Source: Phototrophicaceae bacterium
GTDB taxonomy: Bacteria > Chloroflexota > Anaerolineae > Aggregatilineales > Phototrophicaceae
NCBI GenBank assembly: GCA_049318945.1
Contig: JBMOEO010000004.1
Span: 10,904-74,903 of the forward strand
Direction: 5' to 3'
Length of the DNA stretch: 64,000 bases
A program made the position numbers and the translations under genes. This document shows, one piece after another, positions 17,701 to 33,202 of the stretch. Position 1 is the first letter of the stretch; each line of letters starts with the position of its first letter. Under the pieces are notes generated by a model that saw only the letters and a program-made list of their open reading frames with translations, made no database searches and was not told the origin of the DNA.

Positions 17701-17859
17701 GGTCTAGTTCATCCCGTTGGTTGTCAACATTAATTTAAGCGGTATCATAACGAAAATGACCACTTTTACAACCATATTGACAAGCCAATTTGAAATCATC
17801 ACTAGCCTAGTACGCAAGAAGCCCTATGATAAATCGGTTATTGATTGGTTGGTGAATTG

Positions 17860-19845
17860 ATGATGCAACTCCAAAAAACAAAACTCCCCCTTGCGCTCAT
17901 TGTGATAACGATCTTGGCAAGCCTCCCTCGCCTCATCCAGCCCGGCTTAATGAATTTATCCTGGGATGAATTGAACCTGCTCTTTTGGGCGTTGCGCTTG
18001 GCACGTTACGGCGAATGGATCTGGATTTCTAATAACTGGTTAGGGTTCATCGCCAGTTGGATTCCCATAAGTTACCACTCCCCCCTGAACAATTACGTGG
18101 TTGCACTGGCGTATGCGGTCAATGGGCATCCGCTTTCCCCGCGCATCTTGATGGGTATCTTCGGCACGTTAGCGGTGGCACTCACCTTCACCTACACCAA
18201 ACGTTACTTTGGAAGCCATGCAGGATGGATAGCTGGGCTATTGTTCGCCTTCAATCTAGGCTCCATCGAATTAGCACGCCACGTCCTCAACCCCAACCTT
18301 GCGCTCCCCTTCTTAGGCGGCTGGGCATTCACCGCTTTGGTGGGCTACTACGATCAACGACGCTGGGCACAAATCACGCATTGGGTCTTGCTGGCATGTG
18401 CGATTCAGTTTCAGCCAGCCAACATCATGCTTGCCCCATTCTCGCTGGCGTTGGTTGCCCTAGCACTTTGGCATCACCGCACGACATGGCACACCCTGCT
18501 TCAACAGACCTTGATTGGGTGGCTGTTGGGCGCACTAACCTTGATTCCGTGGATCATTGGGAGTTTACAGGAATCTGAAGGATTGATGCAGAAGGTCATC
18601 TCTGAAGAGCAATACGGCTTCAACTGGACAAACCTCAATCAAATTGCTTGGGCGGTTTGGGGGCAATTTGTTGAGTTAGTGGGTGGCATTAGCTTCCATC
18701 ATTTGCAACGTCTTCCGCTCACACCCATACCCACTTTGGCATGGGATCGTCCCCTTTGGATCATCGCTACACTTGGCTATGTCGCCTGTTTGGGAACGCT
18801 CGTATACGGCATGCGTAAAGGGAAGGATGGCATTCCTCTAGCATTTTTATCAGCGGTTTCGTTAAGCATCCCGTTGTTGACTTTTGTACTGGCGGGTGAA
18901 AAAGCACAGAGTTACTATCAATTCGCTGTTCTATTCGGGGTATTCCCTGTTTGGGGGTATCTATTGGGGCACGGTATCCAACAAAACAGATTCACCCGTA
19001 TCATGGCAATCGGGATCATCGGGGTGTACATCGGTGTTTCCAGCATCCAATATCTTGAGACACACCGATGGTATCAACAAGAAGGCTGGTATCAACCGTT
19101 GATGGCTCCTATTCCCGTCTTCCGCAACCAGTTAGAAACATGGGCGGCTGATGGTCAAGTCATCATGGTGGTGGATACCCACGACAGCAAGTATTATGAT
19201 GCCGACGCTCAACGCTACTTCTGGACGGTCTTGGGTGAAGGGCTACCCCTCCGCATCGTGAATCGCTTCACTGAACAGGGTATTCCCATTCCCGCCAACG
19301 GGGCAACGCTAGTGAGTTTAGACGGCGGGGCAACACTCCCCCAACTACCGATGCAGGGGCTACAAACCAGCGGACAAACTTCTGAAGGGCACGCGCCTGT
19401 CTTCCAGTCAGGACGCTTGAGCATGGCGGATGTTCCAGCATTGACGCTGTTGCCAGAAGGGGCAAATCGCTTCGCCAATGGGGTGACGATACTGGGCGCA
19501 TACTGGGATGTCATCCCGCAACAAAGTGGCGACCTCGCCCGATTAAATCTGTTATGGCATCCTGCTGATCCTACGCCCCTACACAATCAGTATCACTTCT
19601 CATTGCGTCTCATGAATGGTGAAACCACCGTTGGGCAACGCGACTTACGCTCGCTAGATTTAGAATTATGGCGACCAGAAGATACCGTATTGAATCCGTT
19701 TGAGTTGACTGTCAATGAACTATATGATCCATCTAAACCCTTAAGCGTCCTGTTGTTGATGTATCGTTATGAGGACACGGGGGGGATTGGTGCGGTGAAC
19801 GCGGAGGGCGTGGAGGTTGCGCCGTGGGTGATCTTGAAGGGGTAG
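17860..19845 (+). CDS. GT-C fold membrane glycosyltransferase-like protein (family 39-like)
   Basis: ATG at 17860; the track ORF starts at TTG 17845. Polytopic N-terminal 400 aa and a soluble C-terminal domain. Confidence 0.6.
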   Translation: MMQLQKTKLPLALIVITILASLPRLIQPGLMNLSWDELNLLFWALRLARYGEWIWISNNWLGFIASWIPISYHSPLNNYVVALAYAVNGHPLSPRILMGIFGTLAVALTFTYTKRYFGSHAGWIAGLLFAFNLGSIELARHVLNPNLALPFLGGWAFTALVGYYDQRRWAQITHWVLLACAIQFQPANIMLAPFSLALVALALWHHRTTWHTLLQQTLIGWLLGALTLIPWIIGSLQESEGLMQKVISEEQYGFNWTNLNQIAWAVWGQFVELVGGISFHHLQRLPLTPIPTLAWDRPLWIIATLGYVACLGTLVYGMRKGKDGIPLAFLSAVSLSIPLLTFVLAGEKAQSYYQFAVLFGVFPVWGYLLGHGIQQNRFTRIMAIGIIGVYIGVSSIQYLETHRWYQQEGWYQPLMAPIPVFRNQLETWAADGQVIMVVDTHDSKYYDADAQRYFWTVLGEGLPLRIVNRFTEQGIPIPANGATLVSLDGGATLPQLPMQGLQTSGQTSEGHAPVFQSGRLSMADVPALTLLPEGANRFANGVTILGAYWDVIPQQSGDLARLNLLWHPADPTPLHNQYHFSLRLMNGETTVGQRDLRSLDLELWRPEDTVLNPFELTVNELYDPSKPLSVLLLMYRYEDTGGIGAVNAEGVEVAPWVILKG

Positions 19846-20383: not shown

Positions 20384-20779
20384 TTATTGCTGTGACGAGG
20401 ATAAAAGAGATGCCATCACGGCGATTGCCTCATCCATATTGTCTGCAACCCGCACCCGTTGTTTGGCAATGGGGATCACTTGCCCTAGCAGATGGGTCAA
20501 CTGACGAATAGTCTTATCTTGCGTCACCACCACGGCGATACCGGCATTCGTTGGGCGTGACTGAAAAATGCTTGTTAGATGTTTGATGCCATTCCCACTT
20601 GGTAGGCGCAAGCTGTCGCTTAGATCCACGATGGCAGGGATGAGACGTGGCGCGAGGGGGGTGATGATTTGCCCAGATTCCTCCACTGCCCATGTGAACT
20701 CAATCCATGACCACGGATAAACAAATCGAAATAAAAGGACTTGCTCAAAATTGGAATGCCATTTTACGCTGACCGTCAT
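20384..20779 (-). CDS. STAS/SpoIIAA-like small protein (paralog family member G)
   Basis: 131 aa, 18 nt downstream of the Wzc-like gene. Shares the layout of the six other paralogs (W-containing strand 1, hxxhxD strand, P..G loop, C-terminal F/V..s...A helix). Confidence 0.55.
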   Translation of the reverse strand: MTVSVKWHSNFEQVLLFRFVYPWSWIEFTWAVEESGQIITPLAPRLIPAIVDLSDSLRLPSGNGIKHLTSIFQSRPTNAGIAVVVTQDKTIRQLTHLLGQVIPIAKQRVRVADNMDEAIAVMASLLSSSQQ

Positions 20780-22662: not shown

Positions 22663-22707
22663 GTGCTTTACGTCTATGCGTCGTACTGGAGCGCATCCGT
22701 AAAGCAC
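22663..22707 (+). other. 45-nt compound hairpin upstream of the three-gene cassette
   Basis: GTGCTTTACG...CGTAAAGCAC (10-bp perfect outer stem) encloses ATGCG...CGCAT (5-bp inner stem). It ends 87 nt upstream of the ATG at 22794. Confidence 0.4.
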
Positions 22708-22793: not shown

Positions 22794-23690
22794 ATGGAAT
22801 CAAAATTGGTATCCATCAGTCAAAATATTAACGATGAACAGCGAGACTATGATTATTTGTTTGATCTATGTGCGAAGTTTCGTTCCGTAAAAAATATGGA
22901 TATTGTCTTTGATTTTACAGGTTGTCGATTCCTTCGTCAAAATGCTGTTGCAATTCTTGGCGCACTGATACGGTTGCTACGGCAACAGGGAAATACAGTG
23001 GACTTCCGACGTGAAACTATTGAACAAAGTGTTCGTATGAATCTGTTGCAAAATGGATTCTTGTATGAGTTGGGATTAGGTGGCTCTCCCTGGAATGGCA
23101 ACTCAATCCCATATCGTGAAGATACGACTATGGCTGAAGATGATTACGCCGATTACTTGTCTGAAAAATGGTTGGGTAAGGGCTGGGTCAATGTCAGTTC
23201 AAACCTGCGCGATCACATTGTCATGCGTGTGATAGAGGCATATATCAACGTTTTCGATCATGCACAATCGCCCACTGGGGTAATGACTTGTGGACAGTAT
23301 TTTCCAAAAATGGGCGAACTCAGAATAACGATGGTAGATATGGGAGTAGGTATCCCACATCCCGTTCGGGAATATTTGAAACAGCCAAGTATGACAGCTG
23401 AGGATGCCTTGAGATGGGCATTTGCACCGACAAATACAACCAAAGACCAGAATAATTTTGCACGTGGCAATGGGTTGAAACTCCTCAAATCCTTCATGGA
23501 GGAGAATCATGGCAAGCTAGAGATTTACAGCGAAAACGGTTATGCTTGTATTGATGATAATGAAAACCGATTCGAAAATCGTTCTTCTAGCTTTCAAGGA
23601 ACCATTGTTCAAATCACACTGATTTGCGATACCGCTCACTACGCCCTACCAGAAGAGAATGATTATGACAGTGACGAATGGTTCTTTTAG
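22794..23690 (+). CDS. STAS-like N-terminal domain fused to a GHKL (HATPase_c) SpoIIAB/RsbW-like ATPase/kinase domain
   Basis: 298 aa. The N-terminus MDIVFDFTGCRFLRQNAVAILGALIRLLRQQG...MNLLQNGF is STAS-like. N-box is E148AYINVFDHA, G1 is D182MGVG, G2 is G225NGL, followed by GTIVQITL. No DHp/His phosphoacceptor domain. AT-rich. Confidence 0.7.
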   Translation: MESKLVSISQNINDEQRDYDYLFDLCAKFRSVKNMDIVFDFTGCRFLRQNAVAILGALIRLLRQQGNTVDFRRETIEQSVRMNLLQNGFLYELGLGGSPWNGNSIPYREDTTMAEDDYADYLSEKWLGKGWVNVSSNLRDHIVMRVIEAYINVFDHAQSPTGVMTCGQYFPKMGELRITMVDMGVGIPHPVREYLKQPSMTAEDALRWAFAPTNTTKDQNNFARGNGLKLLKSFMEENHGKLEIYSENGYACIDDNENRFENRSSSFQGTIVQITLICDTAHYALPEENDYDSDEWFF

Positions 23691-24062
23691 ATGATTGGAA
23701 ACCTCATGAACTACAGCATAAAAGAAAACATTGGTGCCAACGGCATCACGTTACAAGATGGACAAAAAGTATATGATGAGATTCATCCACAATTGAAGCA
23801 TGGGCAAGAAGTGATACTTGATTTTGCAGATGTGCGAATCGTTGCTTCTCCTTTTCTAAATGCTGCTGTTGGACAGTTACTTAGAGATATTTCGGCTGAG
23901 GACTTGAATCGCTATTTGAAGTTTACCAATCTACCTCCTGTCAAACGCCCGATTCTCAAGCGTGTCATTGACAATGCAAAAGAATATTATGGTAATGAAC
24001 AGATCCGCCATGCTGTTGATGCAACGATAAGTGAGGAGGCGGGTAGCAACGATGGCGATTAA
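23691..24062 (+). CDS. STAS-like protein of the DUF4325 type
   Basis: 123 aa. QEVILDFADVRIVASPFLNAAVGQLL matches the DUF4325/STAS core as I recall it. The ATG immediately follows the TAG of the upstream gene. Confidence 0.65.
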   Translation: MIGNLMNYSIKENIGANGITLQDGQKVYDEIHPQLKHGQEVILDFADVRIVASPFLNAAVGQLLRDISAEDLNRYLKFTNLPPVKRPILKRVIDNAKEYYGNEQIRHAVDATISEEAGSNDGD

Positions 24063-24669
24063 AGTCAACGCCAATGTTATCGACATCCGAATTGATTCAC
24101 CACGATCTAACGACATGTTTTTTGTGGATACGAATGTCTGGTACTGGGTGGGTTATACAAACGCAAGTATCGGTGATGAATCTAATCAGAGTGTTAACTA
24201 CCCAAAGTATGTTGGTGATGCGCTTTCTGCAGGTAGTTCATTGTATAGATGTACGCTTTCATTTGCCGAGCTGGCTCACAGTATTGAACGAAGTGAACGT
24301 ACCATCTTCGAGAAATCAACAGGTAAACAGATCAAGCCAAAGATATTCCGTCATGATTATCCAAACGAACGCGCAAACATTCTTACAGAAATTGAAAATA
24401 CATGGGTGCTATCTGATGGTATGACGGATGGAAATACTATCGAGGTTGATGTATCCGCTTCTATGGTGAGTGATACCCTAACGCGCCTGAAATCCGAAGG
24501 GCTTGATGGATATGATGCCTTCATGGTTGAAGCCATTTTAGCACGGGGGATCAAACAAGTCATAACCGATGATGCTGATTTCGGGCAAATCTCAGGGATT
24601 ACTGTGTTTACAGCAAATGACTTTTTAATCAGACAAGCGACAAAACAAGGTAAAATTAGGAGGCGATAA
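24052..24669 (+). CDS. PIN domain nuclease
   Basis: ATG at 24052, with GAGGAGG 12 nt upstream inside the preceding gene and an 11-nt overlap. FFVDTNVW (D26), ELAHSIE, YDAFMVEAIL and QVITDDADF give the four acidic PIN positions. 205 aa. Confidence 0.75.
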   Translation: MAIKVNANVIDIRIDSPRSNDMFFVDTNVWYWVGYTNASIGDESNQSVNYPKYVGDALSAGSSLYRCTLSFAELAHSIERSERTIFEKSTGKQIKPKIFRHDYPNERANILTEIENTWVLSDGMTDGNTIEVDVSASMVSDTLTRLKSEGLDGYDAFMVEAILARGIKQVITDDADFGQISGITVFTANDFLIRQATKQGKIRRR

Positions 24670-26904: not shown

Positions 26905-27204
26905 TTAATGGAGGGAAGTGCCGTATAAGCGTTCACGCAGTCTTTGCTCCAATTGGAGAATCAATTGATCGCACGCCACATTTTTAACTTTGTTCTGATT
27001 GATGGCGTGATTCATGCAGTCGATGAATTGTTGCATCACTTCTTGGATGAAGGTTTCCACTGAATAGCCGTTTGCTTCAATGGTGTTTGCCAGCAGTTTG
27101 CCGTCACACATCACATGACGCAACGCCTGCCCACTCATGCCGGTGTAAGTGGCAACCAACGTGGTGAAAGTGGATGGATCGGAATAAGTGGATACGGGGT
27201 TCAT
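26905..27204 (-). CDS. Hypothetical protein
   Basis: 99-aa ORF with AAGGAG upstream and its own terminator. No recognisable motif. Confidence 0.55.
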   Translation of the reverse strand: MNPVSTYSDPSTFTTLVATYTGMSGQALRHVMCDGKLLANTIEANGYSVETFIQEVMQQFIDCMNHAINQNKVKNVACDQLILQLEQRLRERLYGTSLH

Positions 27205-27328: not shown

Positions 27329-28720
27329 CTATTCAAAATGCTCGAATGCCTGCTCAATGAAGTAACGGGCAAACGCCTCAGCACGCACCTGATGCACTTG
27401 CCCTTGTCGGTCAAGGTAGGCAAATTGTTCCGCTTTGGCAACATAACCAACTTCTAATAAATTAGGTGAGGGTATGGTGGACACGTCCGCAAGACGTTCG
27501 TAATAACCACGTTCGGTTTCTAAGGCTATGTGTAGGGTTGCTTTGGAGATGCCTGTGTGGGTTTCCATTTCGGGGCTAGGGAAGCCGAAGAAAAATAAAT
27601 AGCGAACAGCATTTTCTGACCGAGCATCTGTGGTTCGATAAAGGCTAAATCGGAAATACCATGTGCGTTTAGACGGACGATGAGCACACAATTCTTGATA
27701 CTTCTCATACTCTAAGCCATCAAATTCCCTGAAGCCAATCCGCTTAGATGATCCTTGTTGGGTGGCTAGGTTGGTATATTCTTGTGCCAATTGTTTCAAA
27801 TAGCCCTTCAATAAACCCATCGCCTTCTCAAAGATTTCATACTCACCGCGCAGTTGTTGATCGTCTTGATACAATAGCTTATGTAAGAATTGCTCGCTTT
27901 CTAGTTGATTCTTGGTGGCGTATTCATAAACCTCAAAGCTCTCTAAAGCAGACTCTAAAACTAAACGAATGAAAGAGGATAAGTCCCCTGCTTGGGTCTC
28001 TTCTAAGGCATCATAGTAACGATGCCGATCATCTTTGGTCAGGATGACCAGTGGGTAGCCACGGCGTATCAAAATCAGATTCATCAATAAGCGTGCTGTA
28101 CGCCCATTTCCATCTACAAACGGATGAATATACACAAACCATACATGCGCAATACAAGCCAAAATCAACGGGTCATCTTGTGCGGTGGAATCTTCATGAG
28201 AGATACTTTCCAGCCACTTCCCAAAATCATCCATCTCTTCATTAATCCGTGCTGGGTCTGGTGGGGTAAACTGAGAGCCAGAGATGCGTACTTGTATGGT
28301 ACGAAACCGTCCCGCGTTTCGATCATCAACACCACGTAGAACAACACCATGCAGTTCTTTAATATCACGTATTGAGATGCCCTCTTTGCTTTTAACCAAC
28401 ACCTCAAAGAAATCAAGCGCGTCGGAAAGATTGCGTGCCTCCATACTATCCTTGAGGGGCTTACCCGTCAAAGTGAGTCCTTGCTCAATCACCATTTTGG
28501 TCTCGCCAATGGTGAGCGTATTCCCTTCAATGGCATTAGAGTTATAGATTTGTTTAAGCCGAAAATATGCTTGTAGATGCGCCAGAGATTCGGGGGACAA
28601 TGTACCGATTAACGTTCGCATTGCACCGATCCGTTCTCTTAAGTCGGTCAATGGCTTGCTCAAATTATGGTCATACTCATAAGGTGTTTGTGAGACTGGT
28701 TGATAACGATTTTTATTCAT
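27329..28720 (-). CDS. Fic family protein (class II, internal inhibitory helix) with an uncharacterised ~190-aa C-terminal extension
   Basis: 463 aa. Fic motif HPFVDGNGRTARLLMN is intact. N-terminal SNAIEGN fits the (S/T)xxxE(G/N) inhibitory motif. Confidence 0.9.
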   Translation of the reverse strand: MNKNRYQPVSQTPYEYDHNLSKPLTDLRERIGAMRTLIGTLSPESLAHLQAYFRLKQIYNSNAIEGNTLTIGETKMVIEQGLTLTGKPLKDSMEARNLSDALDFFEVLVKSKEGISIRDIKELHGVVLRGVDDRNAGRFRTIQVRISGSQFTPPDPARINEEMDDFGKWLESISHEDSTAQDDPLILACIAHVWFVYIHPFVDGNGRTARLLMNLILIRRGYPLVILTKDDRHRYYDALEETQAGDLSSFIRLVLESALESFEVYEYATKNQLESEQFLHKLLYQDDQQLRGEYEIFEKAMGLLKGYLKQLAQEYTNLATQQGSSKRIGFREFDGLEYEKYQELCAHRPSKRTWYFRFSLYRTTDARSENAVRYLFFFGFPSPEMETHTGISKATLHIALETERGYYERLADVSTIPSPNLLEVGYVAKAEQFAYLDRQGQVHQVRAEAFARYFIEQAFEHFE

Positions 28721-28785: not shown

Positions 28786-29355
28786 TTAGCGGAAGGTGAT
28801 ACGGCGGTAGAGATCAGACAGGCGCAGGTTCACCCCAATACTTCGCAACTGGAGGACGCTATCCAGTCCAATGAAGTCCATGACCGACCACCCCATCGCG
28901 CCTGCTTGACGCGCGTAATGCACCACATGAGGCGTACCCGTTTCCACCAATACATATTCATTCAAGCTGGCAATGCCCCGATACCCATTCAATTTATGGG
29001 TTTGATCGTGTTGGGCAGTGCTGGGAGACAACACCTCAAAAATCACCTGTGGGTTCAACAATGTATCGAACACCCCCTCCATGAAGATGGGTTCATCACA
29101 CACCACCGTTACATCAGGGTATACATACGCATTGGCATAGGGCATATACACGCGCATATCACTTGGGTAGACATCGCACGACTGCAACGGGGGTTGATTG
29201 TTCAAGGTGGTGATGAGGTTGCCCACGATCAGGTTATGCGCTTTAGACGCGCCACTCATCGCCACCACTTCCCCATCATACCACTCATGCTTGACCGGGC
29301 TAACGCGCTCATTCTCTAAGTAGCTTTGTGCGCTCACACGCTTGACCGTCACCAT
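28786..29355 (-). CDS. Uma2 family (DUF820) endonuclease, copy 1
   Basis: 189 aa. YLENERVSPVKHEWYDGEVVAMSGASKAHN...DVYPSDMRV...PDVTVV...FEVLSPST is a PD-(D/E)xK Uma2 pattern. Confidence 0.85.
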   Translation of the reverse strand: MVTVKRVSAQSYLENERVSPVKHEWYDGEVVAMSGASKAHNLIVGNLITTLNNQPPLQSCDVYPSDMRVYMPYANAYVYPDVTVVCDEPIFMEGVFDTLLNPQVIFEVLSPSTAQHDQTHKLNGYRGIASLNEYVLVETGTPHVVHYARQAGAMGWSVMDFIGLDSVLQLRSIGVNLRLSDLYRRITFR

Positions 29356-29939
29356 ATTATGAGGATGCCCCCTTCAAACCGACCAAGCGATAGACATCAC
29401 GCAACAACAGGTTCACCCCAATACTTCGCAACTGGAGGACGCTATCCAGTCCAATGAAGTCCATGACCGACCACCCCATCGCGCCTGCTTGACGCGCGTA
29501 ATGCACCACATGAGGCGTACCCGTTTCCACCAATACATATTCATTCAAGCTGGCAATGCCCCGATACCCATTCAATTTATGGGTTTGATCGTGTTGGGCA
29601 GTGCTGGGAGACAACACCTCAAAAATCACCTGTGGGTTCAACAATGTATCGAACACCCCCTCCATGAAGATGGGTTCATCACACACCACCGTTACATCAG
29701 GGTATACATACGCATTGGCATAGGGCATATACACGCGCATATCACTTGGGTAGACATCGCACGACTGCAACGGGGGTTGATTGTTCAAGGTGGTGATGAG
29801 GTTGCCCACGATCAGGTTATGCGCTTTAGACGCGCCACTCATCGCCACCACTTCCCCATCATACCACTCGTGCTTGACTGGGCTAACGCGCTCATTCTCT
29901 AGGTAGCTTTGTGCGCTCACACGCTTGACCGTCACCATA
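28825..29939. repeat. Tandem direct duplication: 2 x 532 bp (28825-29356 and 29408-29939), period 583 bp
   Basis: Manual alignment shows 3 mismatches in 532 bp. All are synonymous and lie near the 5' end of the genes. The 39- and 51-nt 3' tails have diverged. Confidence 0.95.
29357..29938 (-). CDS. Uma2 family (DUF820) endonuclease, copy 2
   Basis: Trimmed to the ATG at 29938, homologous to the copy 1 start. Identical to copy 1 for about 176 aa, with a different C-terminal tail. Its stop is 1 nt from the copy 1 ATG. Confidence 0.85.
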   Translation of the reverse strand: MVTVKRVSAQSYLENERVSPVKHEWYDGEVVAMSGASKAHNLIVGNLITTLNNQPPLQSCDVYPSDMRVYMPYANAYVYPDVTVVCDEPIFMEGVFDTLLNPQVIFEVLSPSTAQHDQTHKLNGYRGIASLNEYVLVETGTPHVVHYARQAGAMGWSVMDFIGLDSVLQLRSIGVNLLLRDVYRLVGLKGASS

Positions 29940-30085
29940 CCGATTGATTCCTCATCTCTGTTAAAAGGCATTCTATCATGGTTATATTTTACCAAGATCA
30001 AGTAAAGTGCTTTAGGAAACTTGCATAACCATGCCGACACTCCCATAATAGTTGTTATAGATCGTCTTGATTGGGGTATCATTTC

Positions 30086-33000
30086 ATGCAATCGCTCTAT
30101 TCCAAAGTGATTGATAATCGTTATGAGATTGAACGTGAGATTGGGGCGGGCAACATGGGCAAAATCTTTCGCGCCTATGACCGCCTACAAGGGCAGATTG
30201 TTGCCCTGAAGCAGGTACAGCTACCCAGCAATACGACCTCCCCAACTGACAGCATCACCGCCACCAACTATCGCCTTGCCCTCACGCGCGAGTTCCAATT
30301 GCTGGGAACACTCAGTCATCCCCATATCATCCGCGTCTTGGATTATGGCTTTGACATTGCGGGGCAACCTTTTTACACGATGGAGTTCTTGCGTGATACT
30401 CGTAATATCGTCCACTATACCCAAGATAAACCGCAAGCAGAGCGCATCAAACTTCTATTAGAGACCATCCAAGCCCTCGCCTATTTGCATCGGCGCGGAA
30501 TCATCCACTGTGACTTGAAGCCGGACAATGTGCAAATCGTCAATGGGCAGGCACGCATACTCGATTTCGGGATTGCCTTAGCGAGTGAGAACACCAACGC
30601 CACAAGCCTTTCTGGCACGCCTGCCTATCTAGCACCCGAAATGTTACGCAACCGTACCGCCCCACACATCGAGAGTGATCTATACGCCTTTGGCTTGATT
30701 GCCTATGAGGTTTTGGTGGGCACGTTCCCCTATGCCAATGATACCCTCCCTGCCCTCATGCGCGATATTGTGTATAAGGTGATTGAGCCGTCTGATATTC
30801 CCTTAGAGAAACCGCTACAAAAAATCATTGCGCGGATGCTAGAGAAAGACCCGCTACGACGATATGGGAATGCGCGTTCGGTTGCCACCGATTTACAGGC
30901 AACCTTGCCCAAAGGGTATATATCCGAATCCCTCAGCATTCGGGATAGCTACTTGCAAGCGGCACAATTCATCGGGCGTGACCAAGAACTCAACACGCTT
31001 AAAGATGCTTTGAAAAAAATCATCCGTCGTTACAACAATCCGCCTCAAGGGAGTGCGTGGTTGATTGGTGGAGAAAGTGGCGTGGGCAAATCACGCTTAT
31101 TAGAGGAGATTCGGATCGCCGCATTGGTGGAAGGGGCATTGGTTTTGCGTGGGCAGAATACCGCTAAGGGATCACCCTATCAAATGTGGCGTGACGCGCT
31201 GACTCGGTTGTTACTCTTCACCCCGAAAAACAGTTATGACCCTCGCCCACTCAAAGACATTGTGCCCGACCTTGAACGCATCCTCCAAACCACCCTCACC
31301 CCATTAGATGAGTTTGACCAACGGGAGCGTTTAAGCCATCTCAACGGGGCGATACTGGATATTTTCCACGAACAAACGCGCCCCATCGTGATCCTCTTGG
31401 AAGACCTACATAATGCCCACGATAGTTTAGACCTGTTGCAACAACTCACACAGTCCATTGCGCAACTCCCCCTGATGGTGATTGCTACCTTTCGCATTGA
31501 TGAAAAACCTAAGCTACCCACCCTGTTTCCCATGATGACCTATCTACAACTGGAGAAACTGAACACCCACGAAATGCGCGACTTGGCAGTCTCCATGTTG
31601 GGGAGCATTGGACATGATAGCCGTTTGCTAGAGCTACTAGAGCGCGAGACCAATGGAAACGCCTTCTTCATTGTAGAAGTCGTGCGTGAGTTGGCTGGGC
31701 GATTCGGTGGGCTAGATCAAATTTCTATCAAGAACCTACCCGATTCTGTTGTATCGGGTAGCGTTAGTTCAATCATTGAGCGTCGCCTGTCCCAGATTCA
31801 CCTAGACTTTCAGCCCATGTTGCGCCTTGCCGCGGTGTATGATCGCTTCATTGATCTGGAGTTGTTGCAAGCAGTGGATGATGAGATGGATTATGACGCT
31901 TGGTTATTCACCTGTGCTGATGTGGCAATCCTAGAGCGTTATGAAGGCGTGTGGCGTTTTACACATGATCGCATCCGTGAGGCAATTCTAAATGTGTTGG
32001 ATGAAAACGAACGTCCGCGCTTACACCGCATGATTGCTGATGCCATCGAGGAGACCTATCCGCAAGATGAATCGTTCGCCTCGCGTTTGTTTTATCACTG
32101 GCAAGAAGCCGGCTACACACGTAAGCAAGGCATCTATGCGCACATTGCCGCCCAGCACGCCTTAGCAACTGCCCAGTTCAATGAAGCGCACTACTACTAT
32201 AAAGAAGCGTTGCAAGTGTGTGAGCCGTCTGAACGTCCTAGCATCCTACTAGGCTTGGGCGATTTACACTTTCAGGTTGGAGACTTGCCCCGCGCCTTGC
32301 ATTATCTCAAAGAAGCACAATCCAACCTACTCACCAGTACCGAACGTGTGCATGCCTTGTTGGTGCTTTCCGAGATTTTCATCTTAGAGGGAGAATTGCC
32401 CAAAGCGATGGATCTACTGAACCGTGCCTACCGCTTAAATAAGCACGAGAACGTTAAAGGCATTCTCCCACGCTTGGTGACTGCATCAGGTGTGGTACAC
32501 CTACTTAGCGGAGATTATCAGCAAGCACAAGCTAGTCTTGACCAAGCCATCCAAATGAGCCAGAAAACAGACGACCAACGTCAACGCTTGCGAGCGTGCC
32601 TATCTATGGCAACCCTCAAGCTGTATCAGCATCAACCAGCAGAGGGGCGTGAACTCATCCGTTGGGTGCATGGCAAGGCAAAGCAACTCAATGATACCGA
32701 GTTAACTATGGCATCTGTTGGATTGTTTGGAGATTTCGCGCTTGAAGACAACAAGCCCGTAGAAGCAGAACAGCATTTCACGCAGGCATTGACGATGGCA
32801 GAAAATATCGGAATCATCCTCCCCATTCCGTGGTTCTTGTTGCAGATTGCCTTTGCACGGATGAAGCTCAAGGATATGGTCAGCGCAACGCGGAGTATTA
32901 ATGAGGCGATTGATCGAGCGTGGCATTTACGGTTGTTGCCAGAATTGGTGAGTGGATTGTTATATCATGCTCACCTGCAAAGCTACTATGGAAAGCTGCA

Positions 33001-33202
33001 AGCGTATCTACCGATGGTGAACTACTTACAACATCTTTCCCGTTTCAACGCTAAAAATCAGTGGGTGCTAAACAAATTGTTGAAAGAATGGGCAATCACC
33101 CCACAACAACTTGAACACATCCCCTATGATCCACAACAATATCCGGATCTACATGCGTTAGTCGTTGAGATACTTGGCTATGATCCGGACACAATCGGTT
33201 AA
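30086..33202 (+). CDS. Ser/Thr protein kinase fused to an AAA(_16)-type NTPase and TPR-like C-terminal region
   Basis: ATG at 30086; the track ORF starts at TTG 30071. Kinase motifs GAGNMGKIF, HCDLKPDN, DFG, GTPAYLAPE. P-loop GGESGVGKS. Long helical-repeat C-terminus. Confidence 0.9.
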   Translation: MQSLYSKVIDNRYEIEREIGAGNMGKIFRAYDRLQGQIVALKQVQLPSNTTSPTDSITATNYRLALTREFQLLGTLSHPHIIRVLDYGFDIAGQPFYTMEFLRDTRNIVHYTQDKPQAERIKLLLETIQALAYLHRRGIIHCDLKPDNVQIVNGQARILDFGIALASENTNATSLSGTPAYLAPEMLRNRTAPHIESDLYAFGLIAYEVLVGTFPYANDTLPALMRDIVYKVIEPSDIPLEKPLQKIIARMLEKDPLRRYGNARSVATDLQATLPKGYISESLSIRDSYLQAAQFIGRDQELNTLKDALKKIIRRYNNPPQGSAWLIGGESGVGKSRLLEEIRIAALVEGALVLRGQNTAKGSPYQMWRDALTRLLLFTPKNSYDPRPLKDIVPDLERILQTTLTPLDEFDQRERLSHLNGAILDIFHEQTRPIVILLEDLHNAHDSLDLLQQLTQSIAQLPLMVIATFRIDEKPKLPTLFPMMTYLQLEKLNTHEMRDLAVSMLGSIGHDSRLLELLERETNGNAFFIVEVVRELAGRFGGLDQISIKNLPDSVVSGSVSSIIERRLSQIHLDFQPMLRLAAVYDRFIDLELLQAVDDEMDYDAWLFTCADVAILERYEGVWRFTHDRIREAILNVLDENERPRLHRMIADAIEETYPQDESFASRLFYHWQEAGYTRKQGIYAHIAAQHALATAQFNEAHYYYKEALQVCEPSERPSILLGLGDLHFQVGDLPRALHYLKEAQSNLLTSTERVHALLVLSEIFILEGELPKAMDLLNRAYRLNKHENVKGILPRLVTASGVVHLLSGDYQQAQASLDQAIQMSQKTDDQRQRLRACLSMATLKLYQHQPAEGRELIRWVHGKAKQLNDTELTMASVGLFGDFALEDNKPVEAEQHFTQALTMAENIGIILPIPWFLLQIAFARMKLKDMVSATRSINEAIDRAWHLRLLPELVSGLLYHAHLQSYYGKLQAYLPMVNYLQHLSRFNAKNQWVLNKLLKEWAITPQQLEHIPYDPQQYPDLHALVVEILGYDPDTIG

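Follow-up and report, generated by a model that had tools for sequence, protein, structure and literature searches.

An operon in a Chloroflexota genome that matches the kinase-gated toxin-antitoxin system vapKSC

Introduction

What kind of system is formed by a GHKL-type kinase, a small STAS protein and a PIN nuclease that are encoded directly one after another, with no sigma factor gene at hand? The question is raised by a cassette at positions 22794-24669 of a 64,000-nucleotide stretch of contig JBMOEO010000004.1 (hereafter the window), which belongs to a metagenome-assembled genome (MAG) of the Phototrophicaceae, in the Chloroflexota. An initial annotation, made from the letters of the window and their translations, had proposed that the nuclease occupies the output position of a partner-switching module, and that the cassette encodes a phosphorylation-gated toxin or anti-phage effector. 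It did not recognize the trio as a named system.

Our analysis indicates that the cassette is very probably a vapKSC operon, a three-component module in which a kinase gates a toxin-antitoxin pair and which acts against phages. Membership of the operon in the vapKSC family is close to certain. The system itself is not new: it was described, named, structurally solved and found to protect against a phage in 2026 by Chambers, Rani, Min, Villa and Corbett (EMBO J 2026, PMC13373217; preprint February 2026), alongside the CapK-CapS regulators. The reference operon is that of Escherichia sp. E4736 (VapK WP_135559716.1, VapS WP_135559717.1, VapC WP_135559718.1; PDB 9Z7O), and 289 vapKSC operons have been catalogued (PMC13373217). 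The trio now has a name, and the claim of novelty falls because it was already catalogued, a circumstance that the annotation itself had named beforehand.

Results

The cassette consists of three tightly coupled open reading frames on the plus strand, as first described:

22794..23690, plus strand: vapK (gene 1), 298 residues, with an N-terminal alpha/beta (STAS-like) domain and a GHKL kinase domain, and without an N-terminal helix-turn-helix (HTH)
23706..24062, plus strand: vapS (gene 2), a STAS (DUF4325) antitoxin with a C-terminal helix; alternative in-frame ATG at 23691
24034..24040, plus strand: Shine-Dalgarno sequence GAGGAGG for vapC, within the 3' end of vapS, read from the sequence
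24052..24669, plus strand: vapC (gene 3), a VapC-like PIN nuclease toxin of 205 residues

The vapC start lies inside vapS, giving an 11-nucleotide overlap by sequence reading. The TAG of vapK directly abuts the ATG at 23691, so the junction originally placed at 23688-23693 is present in the sequence, but the functional junction is probably elsewhere. A second ATG (M6) at 23706, 15 nucleotides past the vapK stop, is the likelier vapS start, because most homologues and Escherichia VapS begin there and vapS typically starts about 15 nucleotides past the kinase gene. VapS is 118-123 residues long depending on the start, and 123 residues from the ATG at 23691. The cassette is richer in A+T than its surroundings, as had been noted, with a G+C content of 0.41-0.44 against about 0.50 on both flanks.

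All three proteins match their Escherichia counterparts. VapS is a full-length match to PDB 9z7o_A, 'Escherichia VapS' (E=1.2e-18), and VapC matches PDB 9z7o_C, 'Escherichia VapC', over residues 6-202 (E=6.9e-36). VapK is 42% identical to VapK of Escherichia sp. E4736 over 277 residues (E=1e-75), the comparison sequence being taken from an AlphaFold 3 source file in the supplement of PMC13373217. The two operons share gene order, similar protein lengths, full-length homology of all three proteins and the key residues, as well as a kinase without an HTH and a STAS protein without a winged HTH (wHTH). They differ in host, which here is a Chloroflexota (Phototrophicaceae) MAG, and in the end of VapK, which reads ...DSDEWFF in the window and ...TSELG in Escherichia. 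The residues mutated in PMC13373217 are all conserved in the window: VapK F54 is F46, VapS S48 is S53 and VapC D28 is D26. These and the kinase motifs lie at the following positions, with VapK conservation read from an alignment of 17 sequences (A1) and one of 74 (A2):

22929..22931, plus strand: VapK F46 codon (TTC), the counterpart of F54 in Escherichia VapK, a putative residue for stacking on single-stranded DNA (ssDNA)
23235..23261, plus strand: VapK N-box E148...N152...H156; E148 and N152 invariant in A1 and A2
23337..23351, plus strand: VapK G1 box D182-M-G-V-G186; G184 and G186 invariant, D182 at least 90% conserved
23466..23477, plus strand: VapK G2 box G225-N-G-L228; G225, G227 and L228 invariant
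23847..23849, plus strand: VapS phospho-acceptor serine codon (TCT), S53 counted from the ATG at 23691 and S48 from the ATG at 23706
24127..24129, plus strand: VapC D26 codon (GAT), the counterpart of the catalytic residue D28 in Escherichia VapC; invariant

Every motif named in the initial annotation is there: EAYINVFDHA, DMGVG, GNGL, EVILDFADVRIVASPFLNAAVGQLL, FVDTN, ELAHSIE, DAFMVEA and TDDADF.

The assignment of gene 2 to the DUF4325/STAS family is borne out by Pfam (DUF4325, STAS-like, 3.4e-20) as well as by the structural match. The S53 position is serine in 75 of 77 homologues, and the VAS-PFL segment around it aligns with FAS48PFF of Escherichia VapS. Conservation extends to the C-terminal YY...R...D motif (Y99, Y100, R106, D110). 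A Pfam profile search of VapS gave no match to an HTH, a wHTH or another DNA-binding domain.

Gene 3 was rightly called a PIN nuclease. Its Pfam PIN match is just above the curated cut-off (6.8e-05; 23.9 vs 23.6 bits), and the AlphaFold2 model, built from a 64-sequence alignment, has a predicted local distance difference test score (pLDDT) of 95.8 and matches VapC toxin structures in Foldseek with template modelling (TM) scores of 0.6-0.7. The acidic residues D26, E73, D152, D155, D173, D174 and D176 are invariant in 64 sequences. Compared with a typical VapC, the window protein has about 70 more residues and carries an N-terminal pair of strands as well as helical insertions.

The C-terminal half of VapK has the GHKL fold. 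HATPase_c of Pfam matches residues 145-275 at 7.9e-05, below its curated cut-off, and a whole-protein profile search of the PDB returned only weak CheA P4 matches, in which the G2 region of VapK aligns to the ATP-lid/G2 region of the CheA domain. For the AlphaFold2 model (74-sequence alignment, pLDDT 89.9), the best compact Foldseek match is SpoIIAB, at target-normalised TM scores of 0.59-0.71. Together with the invariant or nearly invariant motif residues, this upholds the reading of gene 1 as an ATPase of the SpoIIAB/RsbW kind. The third N-box residue, H156, is invariant in A1 and more than 90% conserved in A2. F46 is invariant in both alignments, where GCRF46LRQNAV aligns with Escherichia HCRF54LRPNAV. 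VapK is also a full-length match to phrog_3364 in PHROGs (1.5e-36), and a Pfam profile search found no HTH in it.

The STAS-like nature of the VapK N-terminus, also part of the initial annotation, stands less firmly. The first 130 residues form an alternating beta-alpha domain in the AlphaFold2 model, an order that appears compatible with STAS, and PMC13373217 assigns this domain to STAS. Tests on the sequence do not support it: an hhalign comparison with gene 2 is not significant (E=0.08), and a PDB profile search reaches the STAS protein RsbS only at E of about 1, below chance matches that ranked higher.

The kinase fold bears on how the three proteins are wired. In a classical partner switch, as in SpoIIAB-SpoIIAA-sigmaF, the kinase would bind and silence the PIN nuclease, the unphosphorylated STAS protein would displace the nuclease, and phosphorylation of the STAS protein would keep the nuclease locked. 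The window operon shares with the SpoIIAB-SpoIIAA and RsbW-RsbV modules a GHKL serine kinase fold, SpoIIAB being the structurally closest of the compact matches, and a STAS partner with a serine at the equivalent position. The VapS serine falls at exactly the position of SpoIIAA S58, at the N-terminus of helix 2. The window operon differs in lacking a sigma factor and a PP2C phosphatase, neither of which is conserved nearby, and in the added N-terminal domain of its kinase. In the crystal, orthologous VapS binds VapC itself as a 2:2 complex; it needs no VapK to neutralise the toxin, and the S48E substitution abolishes both binding and rescue (PMC13373217). The published VapS-VapC structure leads us to reject a wiring in which the kinase holds the nuclease, and we consider the classical switch very improbable. 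On this point the analogy drawn at the outset failed twice. In SpoIIAB/RsbW modules the kinase holds the output protein, whereas in 9Z7O it is the STAS protein VapS that holds VapC; and phosphorylation, which in the classical switch inactivates the antagonist, in vapKSC releases the nuclease.

What survives is the broader idea of a phosphorylation-gated toxin, which is supported by orthology to vapKSC and by the published experiments on the Escherichia operon. Escherichia VapC is toxic and its D28A mutant is harmless (PMC13373217). VapS rescues cells from VapC, and this rescue is lost when VapS lacks its C-terminal region or carries the phosphomimetic S48E, which also fails to co-purify with VapC (PMC13373217). 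The 9Z7O structure, at 3.4 Å, is a VapS2VapC2 heterotetramer in which the interface buries S48 and the C-terminal helix of VapS comes to about 6 Å from the active site; VapS leaves the active-site Mg2+ in place (PMC13373217). The Escherichia operon confers about 100-fold (about 2 logs) protection against phage Bas42, which is lost in the D28A, S48A and F54A mutants (PMC13373217). The paralogue CapK requires ssDNA to phosphorylate its STAS partner, and for VapK the case for activation by ssDNA is made from an AlphaFold 3 prediction and the effect of F54A (PMC13373217).

By extension, the window operon would work as follows. In resting cells, VapS would bind VapC in a 2:2 complex through its STAS domain and C-terminal helix, blocking access to the active site. 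When ssDNA arises from phage infection, DNA damage or repair, it would bind in the groove between the two VapK domains and activate the kinase. Active VapK would then phosphorylate VapS on S53 (S48 in Escherichia numbering). Phospho-VapS would dissociate and free VapC, and free VapC would cleave cellular RNA, probably tRNA or rRNA, arresting growth of the infected or damaged cell.

The operon could also be an inactive remnant, with genes that are intact by chance or newly acquired, and that are unexpressed or non-functional in this host. Scans for sigma-70 promoters and terminators at the cassette found nothing convincing above shuffled-sequence controls, and the low G+C content suggests recent transfer. 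Against this, none of the three reading frames is broken, all catalytic and regulatory residues are conserved, and the signals for translational coupling are preserved. Other contigs also carry a VapK at 97% identity and a VapC at 100%. We find the remnant explanation scarcely credible.

We scanned one genome per species and retained 80 loci with gene 1 relatives at 42% identity or more. In 79 of them, vapK is directly followed on the same strand by homologues of gene 2 and gene 3, in that order. The hosts are Chloroflexota, many Cyanobacteria, Nitrospirota, Thermodesulfobacteriota, Planctomycetota, Bacteroidota, Verrucomicrobiota, Acidobacteriota, Gammaproteobacteria and one archaeal MAG. This constancy of the K-S-C order across phyla shows that the trio is a real, mobile and conserved unit, and it answers in the affirmative the initial question of whether the genes co-occur outside this genome. 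Several of these relatives lie in genomes listed as carrying vapKSC in Dataset EV3 of PMC13373217, for instance Calothrix NIES-2100 and NIES-4105, Planctomycetes GWA2_39_15 and Desantisbacteria CG2_30_40_21. The dataset also includes one Chloroflexi bin.

Across the 80 loci there is no conserved fourth gene except subunits of type I restriction-modification (RM) systems. Type I RM genes adjoin 23 of the 80 loci, or 13 of the 47 VapK clusters at 90% identity. At 14 loci the order is hsdR-hsdM-hsdS-vapK-vapS-vapC with all genes co-directional, the hsdS end lying within 120 nucleotides of the vapK start on the same strand. At five Nostoc loci (L031, L035, L037, L046, L054) vapKSC sits on the opposite strand between a HindI-like hsdR and hsdS/hsdM. 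Co-transcription with type I RM, or embedding in it, in about a quarter of lineages could mean that the operon is wired as a second line of defence, an unlikely reading in which it would sense the ssDNA made when restriction and RecBCD process phage DNA. The table of PMC13373217 has RM_type_I among its PADLOC neighbours, and its text treats the RM link only for capKS. There are no type I RM subunits anywhere in the window, so the link seen in the relatives does not apply to the operon studied here.

The RM-adjoining loci listed as co-directional are L001, L009-L015, L018, L020, L026, L029, L038, L050, L053, L064, L067 and L070.

Complete vapKSC trios are also carried by two viral contigs, L081 and L082. 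Three other viral contigs have distant K-S pairs (L083:4875-6082, L084:4875-6082 and L085:4896-6073), with a VapK-like protein at 25-28% identity, a STAS protein of about 100 residues and no PIN gene after the pair. These pairs resemble phrog_3364 and the KIRK pair of a Francisella prophage, a 293-residue protein and a DUF4325 protein beside a repressor and an integrase.

The vapC gene is split into two open reading frames at loci L002, L016, L034, L036 and L067, with vapK intact, and at L021 vapS is lost, only a vapC fragment is left and vapK is again intact. Broken or reduced vapC genes beside an intact vapK suggest repeated decay of the toxin gene.

Discussion

Several known systems share parts with vapKSC. 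One is CapK-CapS, which regulates CBASS, Bub, Thoeris and other immune operons (PMC13373217). The two have in common a STAS and GHKL kinase whose STAS substrate bears a conserved phospho-serine, an ssDNA signal and a frequent position downstream of RM systems. They differ in that CapK has an N-terminal HTH and that CapS, a DNA-binding repressor, carries a wHTH at its C-terminus, and the output of CapK-CapS is transcription of the downstream operon, whereas that of vapKSC is toxin release. We rejected membership of the window genes in CapK-CapS because genes 1 and 2 have no HTH or wHTH match and the next gene is a PIN toxin.

Type II VapBC modules share a VapC-fold PIN toxin whose neutraliser is a small protein, the product of the gene directly before it in the operon. 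However, VapS is a STAS antitoxin without a DNA-binding domain, and the toxin is released by phosphorylation rather than by antitoxin proteolysis as in VapBC. The upstream gene in the window is of the DUF4325/STAS kind and not a VapB (AbrB, RHH, PhD or MerR type), so VapBC was also rejected. Finally, the description of the PIN.4 subgroup by Matelska et al. (NAR 2017, PMC5499597) matches gene 3, a likeness by description. That survey recorded two-gene coupling only, and neither the kinase nor a function (PMC5499597).

Some points weigh against assigning the full vapKSC mechanism to the window operon. The experiments were done on the Escherichia orthologue, and the window locus is known from sequence and predicted structure. 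Identity to the characterized proteins is only about 35-45% (calculated figure: 42% for VapK), and protection was shown against one phage only (PMC13373217). The Escherichia VapK is insoluble, so its kinase activity and its activation by ssDNA were never shown biochemically (PMC13373217). VapK kinase activity and its activation by ssDNA, the RNA target of VapC and the likeness in behaviour of the Chloroflexota copy to the Escherichia operon are inferred. The neighbouring genes include no conserved phosphatase that could reset the switch. Support from defence databases is absent because the 2023 PADLOC-DB holds no VapS or VapC model. The PADLOC check proposed at the outset gave no catalogued model for the trio: in PADLOC-DB v2.0.0 (2023), which predates vapKSC, genes 2 and 3 had no match, and the HATPase region of gene 1 weakly matched the DrmA model (7e-06). 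Nor did NCBIfam or PHROGs, where phrog_3364 carries no functional label, put a name to the trio. The last point is a tail on the window VapK that the Escherichia protein lacks; its regulation may differ in detail for this reason, and we return to it below.

The surroundings of the operon bear on whether it is a defence system at all. Immediately upstream of vapK is an exopolysaccharide gene of the Wzz/tyrosine-kinase type (chain-length/tyrosine kinase), and on the downstream side of vapC lie TPR and inositol-phosphatase genes, the gene after vapC being convergent. Further downstream the window contains:

27329-28720, minus strand: SoFic-like Fic/DOC gene (PADLOC SoFic, 1.6e-43), 2.7 kb from the cassette
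28786-29355 and 29357-30091, minus strand: two adjacent Uma2 endonuclease genes that match the candidate system PDC-S03
30071-33202, plus strand: Ser/Thr kinase-AAA_16-TPR protein of 1043 residues, within 6 kb downstream

These genes correspond to the accessory stretch with Fic, Uma2 and kinase-NTPase genes seen in the initial annotation, and vapKSC, the Fic gene, the Uma2 pair and the kinase-AAA_16-TPR gene may form a small defence islet. The SoFic-like gene and the low G+C content of the cassette fit a defence context. The noted absence of a sigma factor gene also holds: of the 11 open reading frames between 17.8 and 33.2 kb, 10 were scanned and gave no match to a sigma factor or a PP2C phosphatase.

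These neighbours can be read in two ways. The operon could be a general growth-arrest module for DNA damage or stress, or an addiction module that stabilises an island or brings on dormancy, with phage protection incidental. The proposed trigger, ssDNA, can come from DNA damage of whatever origin, and the authors of the study describe the boundary between immunity and stress response as fuzzy. Of the 289 operons in the catalogue, only 36% have a known defence gene within 10 kb (PMC13373217). The genes nearest to the window operon are those for exopolysaccharide, TPR and inositol-phosphatase proteins, and the split vapC genes of related loci are what one sees in decaying toxin-antitoxin modules. 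On the other side, the Escherichia operon protects by about 2 logs and needs all three proteins to do so (PMC13373217). More than a quarter of the related loci (the 23 of 80 above) are fused to or embedded in type I RM loci, complete trios occur on viral or prophage contigs, and the SoFic-like gene and the PDC-S03-like Uma2 genes are close by in the window. We judge a purely general stress or addiction role quite unlikely, and favour an anti-phage module of the vapKSC kind.

As a discovery the locus carries little weight, as it agrees with published vapKSC in every feature that can be tested. The gain is one of annotation: an "ATP-binding protein", a "hypothetical" and a "PIN domain-containing protein" in a Chloroflexota MAG become vapK, vapS and vapC. 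The case also shows that a reader who had only the sequence was able to work out the right logic.

Some smaller features of the region can be recorded. A 45-nucleotide hairpin lies at 22663-22707, 87 nucleotides upstream of the vapK start, with perfect 10-bp arms (GTGCTTTACG...CGTAAAGCAC) and an inner stem of 5-7 bp. It is unique in the window, has no T-run and has a folding z-score of only -1.8, and the closest homologue, which has hsdS before vapK, lacks it in its upstream region. A repeat search at the locus found nothing meaningful. Three open reading frames nearby had no Pfam or PADLOC match at E<=0.001: 17845-19845 (plus strand, 666 residues), 20384-20779 (minus strand, 131 residues) and 26905-27204 (minus strand, 99 residues).

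A feature that sets the window VapK apart from the studied protein is its C-terminal tail:

23655..23687, plus strand: VapK tail, residues 288-298, acidic, ending in WFF; disordered in the AlphaFold2 model (pLDDT <50)

The terminal phenylalanine is present in 69 of 76 locus copies and in 97 of 113 database homologues. Across the family the tail is mostly acidic, commonly E.DDEPLF, and the window copy reads EENDYDSDEWFF (...DSDEWFF). With a hydrophobic residue and a phenylalanine at its end, it seems to resemble the C-terminal tip of the bacterial single-stranded DNA-binding protein (SSB). The tail could act as an intramolecular mimic of ssDNA, keeping VapK inactive until genuine ssDNA takes its place. 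It could instead serve to dock VapK onto SSB-partner proteins or phage proteins. The Escherichia VapK of PMC13373217 ends without the tail, which that paper does not mention. That features of the family missing from the Escherichia system, this tail and the linkage to type I RM, add a further regulatory layer is unlikely on present evidence, yet it is an idea with some chance of being right. The tail and the operonic fusion with type I RM may merit a small follow-up by those who work on vapKSC. A Nostoc subgroup of VapK has a basic version of the tail, ending ...KKRLF.

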